The notes beneath the pieces were generated by a model. That model worked only from the letters and a program-made list of their open reading frames with translations, was not told the DNA's origin and did no database searches. A stretch of DNA of 61,960 nt, filler included, from Basidioascus undulatus (lineage: Eukaryota): the NCBI GenBank assembly GCA_000826855.1. It is 12 parts of 12 records of this genome, joined end to end, with 100 filler letters (N's around TTAATTAATTAA, not from the genome) between each part and the next. Parts side by side here need not be neighbours in the genome. Positions count along the whole stretch, not along the records: positions 48,359 to 51,689 come from JTLS01002451.1; 11 more parts are not named here. One strand, written 5' to 3'. The translations under genes and the position numbers were made by a program. Of the stretch, positions 44,926 through 51,689 are shown one piece after another (positions within the stretch are counted from its first letter, which is position 1; each line of letters starts with the position of its first letter).

Positions 44926-45452
44926 GGGGCGCGGGGGAGAGGTGCGAGAGGTAGGATGCTACGTCGGGGTGCTCGTTTTCGAGGGCGATGTGCTCTGCGG
45001 CCTGCAGGATAAAAAAGGGTGCGTAAGTCCAAGAGAGAGGGGAAAGGGGATGGGACAACGCACCGTCCTCCCCTCCGTATTCCGCACGCTCGTGTCCGCT
45101 CCGAGCTCCTCCACGAGCAGCCTGGCCACCTCGACGTCCTCCACGACAAACAGGCACGTCTCGCCATCGCCGTCGGTGAGGTTGACGTTTGCGCCGGCCT
45201 CGTGGACAAGGAAGCGGAGGATGTCCGGGTGACCCCAGGACGCGGCGGCGTGGAGGGCCGAGTATGCATTGGAATCGAGGGCGTTGGGGGAGACGCCGCT
45301 TTCGATGAGGGACCGCACGCGGGGGAGGTCGCCGTCGGAGGCGGCTGGGTGTGGAGGAGGGTGAGGAGGAGAAGGGAAGGGGGAGGAGGGGGAAAGGAAG
45401 ACACACCGAGCCAGATGTTGGATTCTGATGAATCTTGGGTTGCTGAAACCAT
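44926..45452 (-). CDS. Ankyrin repeat protein (YCR051W-like), 3' truncated
   Basis: NIWL|AASDGDLPRVRSLI..YSALHAAASWGHPDILRFLV..GANVNLTDGDGETCLFVVE. Confidence 0.9.
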
Positions 45453-45836
45453 GATTTGTGTGAAGTTTGGATGAGAGATGGGAGACGGTCAACCCAGGCC
45501 CAAGCTTGGCAAGCGAGAAGGCGGTGGGCAAAGCCGTGGGAATTTGCTTTCACTAGTAATCAACACTCACTTGATAGCCCCTGAAATTGGACGTCAATAA
45601 CACGCGTCAGGGGCGGGGTGCGCGCGCTGTGTGCACCGCCTCTCGCCGTCCCCTCCATCCGCTTTCCATCCCGCCGTTCGTTCTCTCTCCCAAACAACGG
45701 CAAATTGCGCGGGAGGTCCGCTGAACCTTGCTCTTTCTGGGTCGTAGAATTGTAGAGGCAGCGGTTGAGTGAGTGTACTTTCGTTCTGACACTCACCATC
45801 CCCACTGGTACTCCTGCTCCTGCTGCCACTGACACG

Positions 45837-48258
45837 ATGGACCTCCTCCGCCGCCGATTCTCTTCCTCGTCGATCTCCTCGCCGCCGCTTCCAGATATTC
45901 CATCCCCATCCACAACCTTCCCACCCGCCTCTGCGTCCTCCCCCTCGCACACATACAAAGTCTCATTCTCGACCCGGGCAGACTCCATCATCGGGACGTC
46001 TTCGCCCGTGCCCACACCCACCCCTGCCCCACCCTCGCCCCTCAACCGCTCCTTCACCTCACCATCCCGAACCATGCTCCGCACCTCGGACTCGTCCTCC
46101 ACCGCCTCCGCCTCGGGCCCGCGTCGCTTCTCCCTCGGCCAGGGGCGGCCTTCCTCCGGCGCCGTCCCCGCGCTCCAAGACCGCAGCGCCTCTTCCCCCG
46201 CCGCCGTGCCTGGGCCGCCCAAACGCGGCCGCGAAGCGCTAGACGAGCTTCACCCGCTCTTGACCCTCGTCCACGCCCACCAGAACAAGGCCTACTTCTC
46301 GGGCTACCTCGCCAAGCGTGACGTCCTCTCGTCCGAGGGCAAGCCCCTCCGCGACGGCGACCCGCGCGCGCAGTTTGAGGAGGTGTTCGCACAGCTGCTC
46401 GGCACTACGCTTAGCGTGTGGGTCAAGAAGGATATGGACGAGGCGGCCGCGAGGGGGTCGGAGGTCCCGCCGAAGTGTGCGTTCCCCCCTCTCCCCTTCC
46501 CCTCTCCAGCTATCGTCCATTCTCTGCCTAGGAACTTATGTGAGGAAGTATGGGTGTTCCAGACATCAACATCACCGACGCGCACGCCGAGGCACTCGGC
46601 CTGGTGAACGACCGCGGCCGCCCCATGCAGAACGTGTTCGTGCTCAACTCGGCTGGGCTGAACCGGCAAGAGTTTAGCGCGCCGAGCGCACGGGACCTGA
46701 TCTCATGGGTGCACGCCATCCGTCTAGCGATCTGTGAGAAGAAGCGGCTGGAGGTGCATTCTCTCCTTCCCTCTGCCTCCCCGCGCAAGTTGCTAATGGC
46801 CCTGTTGCGCTCGACCAGGAAATCTACACGGCCCATTTGTTGCGCGTCCAGCAGTTCAACGTCCCCAGCGCGGTCCCCCCCAACCCGGGCAGCCCGCCGT
46901 GGGCCGAGCCAAAGACGCCGCTCGTCAAGGGGAAGATGGAGGGCTGGGTGCGCGCGCGGTTCATGGGCAGCAGCAGCTGGACCAAGTACTGGCTTGGTGC
47001 GCACTCCTTCCCCTCCCTCTCCCTCACCTCCCACTAATCCCCCCGAACACAGTCCTCACCGACCACCGGCCCGAAGACCGCAAGCGCTCCTTCTTCGGCT
47101 CCTCCTCCTCCTCGCCCACGCCCTTCCCTTCCGACTCCGCCCCGTCCTCCGCGCGCGCGACCTTCCCTTCCCCGCCCAATGCCCGCGCACTCGCCGCGTT
47201 CTACACCACCAAGGCGCCCAAGCGGTCTGCGAAGCCGGCGCGCGCGCTCGAGGTCGTCACCCAGGCATTCGCGGTGTTTCCCGAGAAGACGGAGCTGATT
47301 AGGCAGAGCACACTGCTCAAGGTCGAGGGGATGTATGTACCTGGTGAGGAGGGGGCGCCGGGCAGGGACGAGGGATGGTGTATGATCATGCCCGAGCTCG
47401 AGGAGGGCCGCCCGCCGCTCACGGCGTGGAACGAGATGCTGCGATGGGTTATCGGTGCGTTGGCGTTATTTTCCTAGTAACTTGGGCGCGTCCTGCTCAC
47501 ATCCTGCACTCTGCGAGAACAGGCTTCCACGATGCATTCGAGCTCTACGGGCGTCCAGCGGGGTACAACTTTGACCCGAAAGACGCGCGCTCGATGTTCT
47601 TCGCCTACCCCTTCGGGCCCTTCCGAGACGTACGTCCTCCCTCGCCTTCCCGAAACCACGCACCCGAAGCTCACCCACCCCCTCGCCCACCAGCGCCTCT
47701 TCCTCGACCGCACGCTAGCCGAGCAGGCTGACATCCGCGAGACGCGCGGCTGGGCGATCCACCAGGGCCTCCTCCAGATCCTGCACCACCGGATGAAGCT
47801 CGCCGAGCAGCAGCGGCGCCTCTCGTCCTCGACGTCTGCCTCTCCCTCGCAGTCGTTCGACTCGCCCCGCCGCTCGAGTGACGACCTCCGCTCCCCGCCG
47901 CCGACGATGCGCTCCGCGTCCGGCTCCGCCCCGCCCGTCCTCCCACCCATCACGGAGAGCGGGGATCCTAGCCCCGCGGAGAGCTGGGGGAGCCGCCCGC
48001 CGGAGCTGAGGGGCGCGCAGGCGCTGCTGGAGAGGGAGGAGGCGGGGGCGAACGCCGTGCCGCACGTTTATGTGAAGGTCGACGAGGAGACATCGCCGCC
48101 CCCGGACCCTGCGACGTTCTCCCCGGGCCAGCAGTCCTTCGCGTCGCAGTACTCGCAGCCCTCGTTCGCCGGCCCGCTTTCGCCCGCCCAGACATCCTCC
48201 CCGCCTACCTCCCCCCCGTCTTCCTCCACACGCTTTCCTCTCATATGCCTGGGCATTC
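45837..48258 (+). CDS. CAF120: Skg3/Caf120-like tandem PH-domain protein, 3' truncated
   Basis: HAHQNKAYFSGY, AQLLGTTLSVW, YINITDA, WVHAIRLAICEKKRLEEIYTAHL, EGWVRARF, AFAVFPE..STLLKVEG, DAFELYGRP. Confidence 0.85.
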
Positions 48259-48358: not shown

Positions 48359-49805
48359 TCGGGGAGCAGAGGGAAGGAGAAGGGATGGGAAGGGAGGGGA
48401 AGAGGTGGGTTAGCGGGTAAGTTAGGAAGGCGGGCGGGGAACGGGAAGAGGAGATGGGAGGGGTGGAAGAGGCAGGAAGAGGGAGGGTAGAAAGACATAC
48501 CTGATCTCGGGAAGGAAGGAGGGCGGGTTGGAGGACTCTTCGAGAGGGAAGAACATGTGGCAAGTAGCGCATTCTGGTCAAGTCCGCATGTCAGTACCAC
48601 GAGAAAGAGAACTCGAAAGAGTAAGAGCCGCACCTAACCGCCCATCACAAACGCCCTCGACGTTCCCAAGCTTCTCCCTCCGTCCAAGCTGCATCAAGCT
48701 CTCCCCCACCTTCCCCTCCACATCGAACTCCCCTCCCTCCACATCCCTAAACTGCACGCGCACCGCATCGGACTCCGCCCCGCGTGCGCGCGGCTTGAGC
48801 TGCGTGGGCGCGGGCGCGTCGGGCGGAGCGGGGTTGAGCGTCTGCCCCGCCGCCGCGGCAGGCGCGAGCGCGGGGTCGACCCCCAGGCGGCCGCGCCAGT
48901 GCGGCCAGAGGACGGAGGAGGCGGAGGAGAGGTTCGGGGGGTGCGAGAGCGAGAGGAGGGTGGGGACGTCCGAGGGTCGGAGGTTGCCGTACCAGTCGCC
49001 CGAGGGGAAGACGATTGCGTTGGCTGCCCACCTGCCGGAGGAGGGGTGTTGAGAAATGGGAAAGGCAAGGGGAACGGGGGAAGGAAGATGAAAGGAAGAC
49101 GCACTTGTGTCCCCCGACATGCGCGATCTCCCGAACATGCACGTCCTTCTCCACCCTACGCTTCTGCACCTCCTCCCGCAGAGCCTGTACGACCGCGCCT
49201 CCCGCGTCTCCGCACCTGCAGTCCCTCGCGCCATGCGTACACACATACACGTGCGTCTCCCCCCCACTCGGGCGGTCCAGCGCCTCCCCCTTCTGCGCGG
49301 CCGCGACGAGCTCCATCACGAGCCTAGGCGCAGACTCAAGCGTGATGTTCGTAATCTCGCGCATGGAGGGGTACAGCGTCGCGCGCCACACCTCCTCCTT
49401 TGCGCCCTCCTTCGGCGCCTCGGCCCCCACGCCATCCCACGCCAGGCCGACGAGCACGCCCGCCTCGGCGAGTGCGGGGTCGGAGCTCAGCGCGCGGTAG
49501 AGCGGCGAGACAGCCTCGACTTTCGCAGGCCAGGTATGCGGAGGGTAGGGCGCGTGCAGGATCAGGTGCGCCGAGTGCTTCTGCGTCGAGCCGGGGAGAG
49601 GGGAGGGGTCGAACGGCTCGGCTTGGAGGGCGCGAAGGGGGGTGGTGCTGAATGGACGGAGACGGAGGTGGGAGGAGGAGATCCGGGGCCGGAGGAGAAC
49701 GCGGGCTCGGGAGGGGGCGGCGAAGGACGCTGCTGGGAGGAGAGCGGGTGCAACGGTGGGCCGCACGGGCATGATAGCCCGAATGGCGCAAACAGCGGCG
49801 CGCAT
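48359..49805 (-). CDS. AIM32: Aim32/Apd1-type thioredoxin-like ferredoxin fused to an adrenodoxin-type 2Fe-2S domain, 3' truncated
   Basis: Mitochondrial-type presequence; CTHGARDCRC, HVGGHK|WAAN, WYG, HWRGRLG; then VRVQFRD..GKVGESLMQLG..EGVCDGRL|ECATCH. Confidence 0.85.
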
Positions 49806-50870
49806 GATGGCTTAGATAAAAAGGATTTTGCCTCAGACGGCGAGGATGAGGAGGGGTCAACGAGGTCGACGAGGTCAAGAGAGAAGACGTTCCAAAATGC
49901 GAGCAGGCCCGTTGGCTCGGTGCCTTCGGCTCGGGCCGAGTGCGGACCTGTCACCGAGTTCACCGAAGCTTGACACACTGTCATTTCACTGCACTGACAG
50001 CATTGCAGTTGCTTGAACTTGGCATCAGGTTGAGCTCTGCAACTGTATGCATAAAATGCGAATTAAATCTGTTCAGATCATAGGATGGTTTCCCTTGAGG
50101 ATTTCTTCGTCTGAACCACCCGCACCAACGCTGTTCGTCGACCAAGGGTGTCGTCCTAAGCGAGCGTCCTGTACGCAAGGAGTCACAGAGAAGCACTGCT
50201 TCTTCCATTCACATGCCATCCAAATTTAGTCGACATTGCAGACTTATGGAACAACAGCTTCAGGGGACTTGTCATGAGGCAGGAGATTACAGCGCACAGC
50301 ACCAGCAACCGCGTACGACCGCTTCCAGGTTGAGGCGAATGGGTGATCCTTTATGTGCTCGTGTGAATTGCTGCGAATAAGTTGACGGAAATTGGAGAGC
50401 ATCAGTTATATATCTACTTACGCCCTCGCAGCGCAGTGACTGCCCCTTCCTGCTTTCGCAGCCATGGAGCCTGCAGACGTGCAGATCGTAGGCATCGTAC
50501 CACTCTGTGAAGTGTACTGACAAAGGTACGGCGAGGAGGACGTGAGCAGAGGCAGTTCTGCTGCTCCTCACTATCATCTGTCTCTATGCGGATATGAGGG
50601 ACGCCGGTGGTGTATTTTCAATGGTTGCTCTTAAGAAAGACACCTTAAGATTTTTTGTTTGCCCAAATCAGCTTTTGTGAGTCTCTCCTGATTTCGGGAG
50701 CAGCTGCGCCATGTGGCGTGCATTCCAGTGTCGCACCCGATCGTTCCGGGAGCGCAACTTCCTTCGTTCACTTTTCATCCACCACTCACTCGAAGGCTCA
50801 TCCCTCCTCCTCACCCAATCGCGAGCAGCAATACTCTGCTTTCCTCGCCACCTCACTCTCCCCTCAAACC

Positions 50871-51201
50871 ATGCCCAAGACCAGCCGCCCCCTGCGGAAC
50901 GCCCTTATGTGGCATATACTCTGCCGGTGTACAGGACCGAGTTTACTGTATTCAGGGAGAAGATAGCTGAACATGCCAAAGCGATGGACGAAAAGTTCGG
51001 GGCGCAGGCGAAGGAGCTCGGGCTCGCTGCCCAGATGAAGGAGCTCGACGAGACGCTTGCGCGCAGGCGAAGGAGTTGGAGTGGATCGCTGCCCAGCTGA
51101 AAGAGTCGGACCCTAAGCTGGAGATGGATATGGGGGCGCTGGAGCGCCAGATGGCCGTATTCCTCCCCTGGCTGAACCTTTATGAGGAGAGGGGTGAGTG
51201 A
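50871..51201 (+). pseudogene. Frameshifted coiled-coil-like remnant with an internal duplication
   Basis: AQAKEL..AAQ.KE.D unit at 51002 and again at 51061 (offset 59 nt, out of frame). Confidence 0.35.
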
Positions 51202-51689
51202 TAGTCACGAAGGAATGCATACGAGCCTGGAGGGAGCGGGGTTTCGCAAGGATGCTGTCAGGGTCCTGGCATTTCTGAGTATAATTTCAGCGTCAATTAC
51301 CCACCCGGCTGCCCACCTACGCGATTCGCTGCTTCGCCACCTCGACAAATGAACTTCCTCATACCCTTTTCATTCCTAGAAAACTAACGGATCAATATTT
51401 CGTTTCATCATAGCAAAAGGGTCACAGATGCAGGGCCAGCGGAAGCTATCTTAAAGCGCTGAAACGCGGGTCCCACGGTTCCCATCGCCGGACCAAGCTC
51501 ACCCACGTCTTGCGCACAGCTTCGTTCTCTACCACCATTATCCGCCCTCAACTCGAAAGTGTAAGTCTTCGGTCCCAGCCTAGCGCCGCACTCCGGAAAA
51601 GAGGCGATTAGAGACGGCTACTGGCACGCGAGTAGGAGCGCAGACGGCACAGCAAGCCACTCTGCCTCCCTGTCTCCGCAACACGGGGA

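Follow-up and report, generated by a model that had tools for sequence, protein, structure and literature searches.

A fungal gene fusing an Aim32-type thioredoxin-like ferredoxin domain to an adrenodoxin-type ferredoxin, and a candidate two-cluster mitochondrial relay

The analyzed window is a stretch of 61,960 nucleotides of Basidioascus undulatus DNA, in which contigs are joined with N spacers. Positions 48359-51689 represent the whole of contig JTLS01002451.1 (G000:C1614) and carry a gene on the minus strand with its start codon at 49805. Three exons (49805-49105, 49031-48634, and 48573-48501), separated by introns of 73 nt and 60 nt with GT..AG borders, are spliced into 390 codons with zero stops. 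Exon 1 (49105..49805, minus strand, as are all features of this gene) contains the start codon, a mitochondrial presequence-like stretch (residues 1-62, 49620..49805), and the N-terminal half of an Aim32 (Suc_Fer-like) domain with its cluster motifs, namely, C189-X8-C198 (49212..49241), both Cys of which were invariant in an alignment of 82 sequences, and the equally invariant H-X-G-G-H motif, here HVGGH (H229-X3-H233, 49107..49121). Removal of intron 1 (49032..49104) restores the K-W-A-A-N-A continuation conserved in homologues. Exon 2 (48634..49031) encodes the end of the Aim32 domain, an Ala/Pro-rich inter-domain linker (about residues 282-322, 48767..48889, net charge -1), which has a low-confidence counterpart in the Wallemia model described below, and the start of a ferredoxin through its first Cys. 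Intron 2 (48574..48633), which is in frame and has a stop inside, interrupts the motif C362-X5-C368-X2-C371, and exon 3 (48501..48573) carries the second and third ferredoxin Cys. A preceding sequence-only reading had described a single spliced frame with all of these motifs, the absence of a stop between the domains, and the splitting of C-X5-C-X2-C by the intron at 48574-48633; each of these statements was borne out, the strand being minus. The 5′ part of intron 3 (48359..48500) runs out of the contig at 48359, which is position 1 of G000:C1614.

A dispersed repeat occupies 51317-51689, at the opposite end of this contig, and matches 25 other places in the genome at 70-99% identity. The adjoining but unlinked contig of the window contains an ankyrin-repeat gene at 44959-45549 (minus strand) and a second gene at 45756-48258 (plus strand), which we take to resemble a Caf120/Skg3-type PH-domain protein.

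The missing last exon was located, with a homologue as the query, at the end of contig G000:C2259, which has a 20-base exact overlap with G000:C1614. The overlap and an acceptor in phase give a total length of 183 nt for intron 3, the rest of which lies on G000:C2259; the exon itself (about 39633-39495, minus strand) encodes an acidic helix, the Cys of an RL-x-CQ motif (C413), and the stop codon. The search for a fourth Cys by extension of the contig, proposed together with the sequence-only reading, was accordingly successful. The complete product, encoded by four exons, has 436 aa and is 50.5% identical to the 365-aa Wallemia mellicola protein P0043 across 396 columns (pairwise E = 9e-135), a match that confirms the gene as a real observation and not a chance one. 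The organism is evidently placed among basidiomycetes close to Wallemia. Exon 2 alone, used as a query, retrieved 42 homologues, the best of which was from Wallemia (52% identity across 100% of the exon). Since this single exon continues from the last part of the Aim32 domain through the linker to the first ferredoxin Cys, the fusion is independent of any predicted splice. Merged gene models do occur in the family (one Wallemia model of 1998 aa, and Malassezia models to which an SSB domain is joined); nevertheless, the possibility that two neighbouring genes were merged here through splicing assumptions is extremely remote, given the position of the junction within one open exon, the same domain order and C-terminus in 33 genera, and full-length proteins of 504-505 aa from metagenome and Logan contigs, with up to 95 contigs each. 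The gene callers behind these 504-505-aa proteins are presumably intron-blind.

Exon 1 matched the Pfam family PF06999 (Suc_Fer-like) with an E-value of 8e-19 and 68.9 bits against a cut-off of 34.9, as the sequence-only reading had led one to expect, and the same family was found above the cut-off in 82 of 82 relatives. The residues C189 and C198, the 30-residue gap, and H229-V-G-G-H233 agree with the bis-His thioredoxin-like ferredoxin (TLF) motif of Aim32/Apd1, defined as C-X8-C-X24-75-H-X-G-G-H (PMC11138216), and a 2Cys-2His [2Fe-2S] cluster is predicted for this domain from its ligand residues. The first 62 residues include 10 Arg and no Asp or Glu, with R-P-F-S at positions 50-53; this composition agrees with the Arg-rich presequence described earlier and is consistent with mitochondrial targeting of the fusion protein. 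The protein ends in Tyr, without a C-terminal Trp motif. A second Suc_Fer-like gene of the same genome, located on contig G000:C1221, has an H-I-G-G-H motif and an N-terminal Cys cluster but no presequence-like start, and is probably the Apd1 orthologue. Because this separate, Apd1-like gene exists, the fusion gene is assigned, by inference, to the Aim32 type, and orthology with Aim32 rather than with Apd1 would follow, the trees having contained no yeast sequence. The domain thus shares with yeast Aim32 and the cytosolic Apd1 (PF06999) the thioredoxin-like ferredoxin fold type and the 2Cys-2His motif, and with yeast Aim32 the mitochondrial presequence, here presequence-like by composition. 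In yeast Aim32 the TLF domain is C-terminal (PMC8482512), whereas here it is followed by a complete second [2Fe-2S] domain. Stand-alone bis-His TLF homologues were concentrated in Gemmatimonadota genomes.

All four ferredoxin Cys ligands (C362, C368, C371, and C413) are present in the second domain, with a spacing of 41 between the third and fourth Cys as against the 35-37 stated for adrenodoxins. The C-terminus of the Wallemia orthologue matched PDB sequences of human FDX2 (E = 1.4e-14), adrenodoxin, and yeast Yah1 (E = 3.5e-12), and the window protein scored 68 bits against an FDX2-type profile. The Pfam family Fer2 (PF00111), also proposed earlier as a check, had no match on the separate ferredoxin exon pieces of the window and reached only 15.5 bits (E = 0.017) on the Wallemia orthologue, which is under the cut-off of 21; it did match 45 of 82 relatives at E ≤ 0.01 and missed the other 37. 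The lack of a Fer2 match, previously offered as grounds for rejecting the fusion, would therefore mislead, and because Fer2 misses both the exon pieces and the orthologue, the identification as a ferredoxin rests on the PDB sequence and fold matches. The fold evidence comes from AlphaFold modelling of the orthologue from Wallemia (50.5% identical to the window protein), with each structural match spanning a single domain. The model based on the 82-sequence alignment (pLDDT 85, pTM 0.65) replaced one based on 17 sequences (pLDDT 58.6) and had two confident domains separated by a low-confidence linker (pLDDT < 50 at residues 238-249). Its Aim32 domain was matched to the thioredoxin-like ferredoxins 1f37 (Z = 15.5, rmsd 2.4, 102 aligned residues) and 5abr (Z = 14.7), and its ferredoxin domain to the adrenodoxin/putidaredoxin class (Z = 16.0-16.9, rmsd 1.7-1.9, 103-109 aligned residues), for which Foldseek also gave an E-value of 1.9e-9 against adrenodoxin-type ferredoxins. 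A complex prediction for the two domains of P0043, in a run where the alignment was unused, gave no verdict (score 0.02), and an Atlas search with the ferredoxin part returned only leads below 0.9. Like Yah1, FDX1, and FDX2, the fused domain has the beta-grasp fold, the C-X5-C-X2-C...C ligand pattern, a His after the third Cys, and an acidic helix, with a net charge of -11.

The distribution of this architecture was assessed by a profile search (101 homologues) and in a representative library (6549 matches at E ≤ 0.001, the best 150 of which were read). All four motifs were present in 96 of the 248 homologues examined. The fusion was found in 33 named genera with the same domain order and C-terminus, and consequently is not peculiar to B. 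undulatus. Early-branching carriers were Rozella and six chytrid-grade genera (Polychytrium, Cladochytrium, Synchytrium, Chytriomyces, Powellomyces, and Gonapodya), followed by Dispira, Calcarisporiella, and Mortierellales, including Mortierella, while the basidiomycete carriers, which cover three subphyla plus Wallemia, included Wallemia, Malassezia, Tilletia, Rhodotorula, Melampsora, Rhizoctonia, Cryptococcus, and Phaffia. The same architecture name is attached to three Atlas clusters with 52-101 members each. No ascomycete was found among the named matches, fused or not, and the phylum is represented here only by the yeast literature. Among prokaryotes, 0 of 80 loci (kept out of 137 confirmed ones) had both domains in a fusion or operon. 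The ferredoxin is missing from the Aim32 proteins of smut fungi and from yeast Aim32. Of 42 Aim32-only representatives, 37 stop no more than 45 residues past the Aim32 domain, and those placed in the tree, with Fistulina, fell mostly among Agaricomycotina (weak support), which suggests secondary loss, although some of these forms may be exon fragments. From this distribution, the fusion is probably ancestral in fungi and was lost several times, with yeast Aim32 as a shortened form. It should be noted that most of the listed named W. mellicola annotations join the gene to Zn-cluster and RRM genes lying upstream, in a model of 1998 aa, and that the separate 365-aa model also exists.

The fused ferredoxins share features that set them apart from the ISC-type (Yah1/FDX2) proteins. 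The residue before the second Cys was Glu, and the second residue after the first Cys was Gly, in 97 of 97 fused sequences (96 plus the window protein), a set gathered with profiles of fused proteins and hence by a choice that favours uniformity; these invariant residues of the loop point to a conserved partner surface. In Yah1 of yeast, Neurospora, and microsporidia and in human FDX1, the residue before the second Cys is Ala (PMC5216125). The helix of the fused domain reads M-L-x-Y/F-A, with Tyr/Phe in place of Leu, and most fused ferredoxins end 16-24 residues past the last Cys motif, which is a short C-terminus. The window protein has the loop E-C-A-T-C-H and the helix M-L-Q-Y-A instead of the A-C-S-T-C-H and M-L-D-L-A of Yah1/FDX2, and it lies outside the ISC clade. 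Of the two contacts with adrenodoxin reductase, the Asp76-equivalent was acidic in 95 of 95 scored sequences (two were unscored), whereas the Asp79-equivalent was variable (acidic in 64 of 95 scored, Gln in the window protein). The mean identity of the fused ferredoxins was 36% to ten ISC-type sequences, which were 60% identical among themselves and formed their own clade (100% support); in this tree, which was built without fungal Yah1, the fused ferredoxins were placed outside the ISC-type clade, yet were unresolved as one clade. Unlike Yah1, FDX1, and FDX2, the domain is also fused and has no presequence of its own. These residues and tree positions indicate that the fused ferredoxin is a class distinct from ordinary Yah1; the earlier designation as adrenodoxin-like stands for the fold and the ligands, but not in the sense of Yah1 itself. 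Proteobacterial ferredoxins with the same E-C-A-T-C-H loop signature are known (e.g., in Microvirga, beside TrxR-like ferredoxin-NADP reductases), and 46 of 49 such loci, mostly from Microvirga and retrieved with a pattern that demanded this signature, also had the reductase motif G-A-G-P-x-G-L-F. They differ from the fused class in being stand-alone and are slightly more distant from it than the ISC-type (33% mean identity to ten sequences); descent of the fused class from them was considered and found unsupported, the trees of about 105 columns being unresolved. Three Tilletia entries (P0255, P0256, and P0270) encode a fused-type ferredoxin that stands alone and begins with a presequence-like stretch; they were the only named ones in a search for short stand-alone relatives that had only 20 candidates, and T. 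horrida entries include both fused and free forms.

It was also considered whether the fused domain could be the essential Yah1 of B. undulatus, serving Fe-S, heme A, and CoQ synthesis while carried on Aim32. Such an assignment is suggested by the top PDB sequence matches (FDX2, adrenodoxin, and Yah1, E from 1e-14 to 3.5e-12), by one M. sympodialis annotation that calls the fusion "similar to YAH1", and by the failure of searches with two families, one protein, and four patterns to find a canonical Yah1 in the genome. A PF00111 profile search yielded only a xanthine-dehydrogenase-like gene, and TIGR02007, an FDX2-type protein, and two sequence patterns yielded no match at all. A further Yah1 pattern had three matches, one of which was read and was not a ferredoxin, while two were outside the Ser codon set; another also had three, namely, the last exon of the fused gene, a chance match, and one starting with a Cys codon. 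These searches are weak, as the assembly consists of 2992 contigs, the motifs are split by introns, and the FDX2-type query missed even the fused gene, and canonical Yah1 is better described as not found than as absent, probably owing to assembly gaps or introns. The idea that Yah1 is concealed in a Cox15-ferredoxin fusion was ruled out, since COX15 of B. undulatus ends at a stop without a fused ferredoxin, a fact that also leaves room for the fused domain in this role. On the other hand, Yah1 has other residues at the class-specific positions of loop and helix, the 36% identity to a fully supported ISC-type clade is low, smut fungi have no such domain, and named free copies with a presequence come only from Tilletia. 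Moreover, CNAG_03589 of C. neoformans has been published as YAH1, an "adrenodoxin-type ferredoxin" (PMC6282196), and the fused protein of this species is labelled hypothetical; the two are probably distinct genes. Taken together, identity with Yah1 appears very unlikely.

The linker bears on whether the two domains remain in one chain. Tandem mitochondrial precursors, including S. pombe Etp1, have presequence-like stretches and R-x-aromatic motifs at their junctions (PMC8734313, PMC12375894), and Etp1 (Cox15-ferredoxin, Etp1fd structure 2wlb) is a precedent for a ferredoxin carried C-terminally by a different mitochondrial protein (PMC8734313). If the fusion were of this kind, two unrelated proteins would share one presequence and be parted by the processing peptidase, and the fusion would be uninformative on partnership. 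The Aim32-ferredoxin linkers, 19 to 128 residues long, had a net charge of zero or below in 59 of 76 sequences (26 of 33 genera) and contained R-x-[YF]-[AS] in 1 of 76 sequences (0 of 33 genera), in a test based on charge and motif counts that is heuristic and draws on related, non-independent sequences. By the same heuristic the window linker, with a net charge of -1 and no such motif, does not resemble a tandem-precursor junction. Nor do the linkers resemble the N-termini of the same proteins, the median net charge of which was +5. A P-R-x-R-G-like motif in the linkers of the window protein and of many Ustilaginomycotina would favour cleavage, as would the free ferredoxin copies in Tilletia; this Arg motif is, however, missing from the linkers of Wallemia, Cryptococcus, Mortierella, and chytrids.

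A different picture was obtained for 17 Ustilaginales-type proteins (Ustilago, Mycosarcoma, Sporisorium, Moesziomyces, and Melanopsichium), in which a complete lipoyl synthase occupies the C-terminal place of the ferredoxin behind Aim32. Their linkers were positive in 17 of 17 cases and contained R-x-[YF]-[AS] in 16 of 17 (by genus, net neutral or acidic in 0 of 5 and motif in 5 of 5). The linker of the P0120 (UMAG_11549) type is positive and Ser/Thr/Ala-rich, and ends in R-x-Y-A. The Aim32-Lip5 form was derived once, its proteins branching from among ferredoxin-fused Ustilaginomycotina (support 0.987/0.993). In their presequence-like stretch and motif these smut linkers are like those of Etp1-type tandem precursors, and smut Aim32-Lip5 is likely an MPP-cleaved tandem precursor, seemingly undescribed; most Aim32-ferredoxin linkers, by contrast, are without the presequence-like junctions and MPP motifs known from Etp1, Arg5,6, Rsm22-Cox11, and Atp25 (PMC8734313). 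Although the use of one C-terminal slot by Lip5, behind a presequence-like linker, shows what a tandem precursor of Aim32 may look like, these comparisons favour an uncleaved Aim32-ferredoxin beside a cleaved Aim32-Lip5, and we regard the parting of the two domains in the B. undulatus protein as unlikely. The name "lipoyl synthase" has been passed wrongly from Aim32-Lip5 to Aim32-ferredoxin proteins of Malassezia and Ceraceosorus.

The same exchange raises the question of an outside client, in which case the chain would stay whole while its ferredoxin served another enzyme, lipoyl synthase being the best candidate in an FDX1-like role, and Aim32 would gate, buffer, or protect. In the smuts that lost the ferredoxin, LIP5 is fused in its place, LIAS in humans receives its electrons from FDX1 (PMC12670532), and the fused ferredoxin is a second class beside Yah1/FDX2, without the C-terminal tail of the FDX2 type. 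Against this, the Lip5 fusion arose once, has a linker that looks cleavable, and may have come about by read-through between adjacent genes; the B. undulatus genome has LIP5 as a gene of its own; and the string "lipo" occurs 0 times in the yeast Aim32 study (PMC8482512). Service to an outside client is, in our estimate, about as improbable as cleavage. A broader version, that an ancestral second, dedicated mitochondrial ferredoxin class is hard-wired to Aim32 and that the lipoyl-synthase swap marks Aim32 as taking part in supplying lipoate synthesis with electrons or in its redox protection, is slightly less probable still.

The reading that we consider the most reasonable, and which is somewhat better than evenly probable, is that of an uncleaved mitochondrial protein with two [2Fe-2S] clusters, in which the ferredoxin would pass electrons to the His-ligated cluster. 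The gene structure, ligands, orthologue folds, spread, and linker were observed as given above; from them we infer, as follows, how the protein is imported and loaded with clusters, which way electrons flow, and what donates and accepts them. The nuclear-encoded protein would be imported into mitochondria and remain one chain afterwards; its Aim32 thioredoxin-like domain would hold a 2Cys-2His cluster, and the dedicated adrenodoxin-type ferredoxin tethered to this domain a 4Cys cluster. Electrons would come from matrix NAD(P)H through a ferredoxin reductase (Arh1 or another donor) to the low-potential fused ferredoxin, and from there to the His-ligated cluster, which would have a higher potential and be proton-coupled; the latter could reduce an oxidised acceptor, e.g., damaged thiols or quinones/phenolics that undergo redox cycling. 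The linker, being flexible, would let the ferredoxin swing between the donor and the Aim32 domain. A point against the relay is that the linker length varies among the proteins (19-128), which does not suggest a fixed geometry. Since adrenodoxin-type clusters are of low potential and Apd1 is said to lie at about -164 mV (reportedly from the 2019 work of Stegmaier), flow from the ferredoxin to the His-ligated cluster would be downhill. The potentials given for FDX1 and FDX2 are 267 and 342 mV, with the sign not printed (PMC12670532), and the His ligands of Aim32/Apd1 permit proton-coupled transfer (PMC11138216). Arh1 would be the default donor, a role weakened by the variable Asp79-equivalent. 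A relay to an oxidised acceptor fits the gallobenzophenone sensitivity of apd1 (PMC11126956) and the phenotypes that yeast aim32 shows in stress and in redox quality control (PMC8482512).

The chief fact against an obligatory relay is the repeated loss of the domain, which is dispensable in several lineages; those without it (yeast, smuts, and probably Agaricales) would depend on a separate ferredoxin or on some other donor, and the Tilletia copies suggest that the fused-type ferredoxin can exist untethered. The earlier proposal of a ferredoxin as the redox partner of Aim32 gains from the conservation of the fusion across fungi, but it reaches yeast only if Yah1 substitutes for the fused domain. 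The principal paper on yeast Aim32 mentions Yah1 and Arh1 0 times.

Both domains are known, and their combination is already visible in automatic database annotation. A full-text search, which covered few subscription journals and did not include Stegmaier 2019, found no paper on the fusion, the ferredoxin class, or Aim32-Lip5, and the fusion is apparently a real, old, and uncharacterised combination of known parts. Kept from Rozella to Cryptococcus, it names a candidate electron donor for Aim32, and it exposes a second class of fungal mitochondrial ferredoxins, overlooked by Pfam Fer2 in 37 of 82 relatives, which as a dedicated class would parallel the FDX1/FDX2 split of animals. If the dedicated-class reading with its link to lipoate were true, the Aim32 family would gain both a donor and a pathway. 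Yeast Aim32 is predicted to be a truncated form that may use Yah1. A single-chain construct would allow two spectroscopically distinct clusters to be titrated together, and the question of the electron source of Aim32 thereby becomes directly testable.
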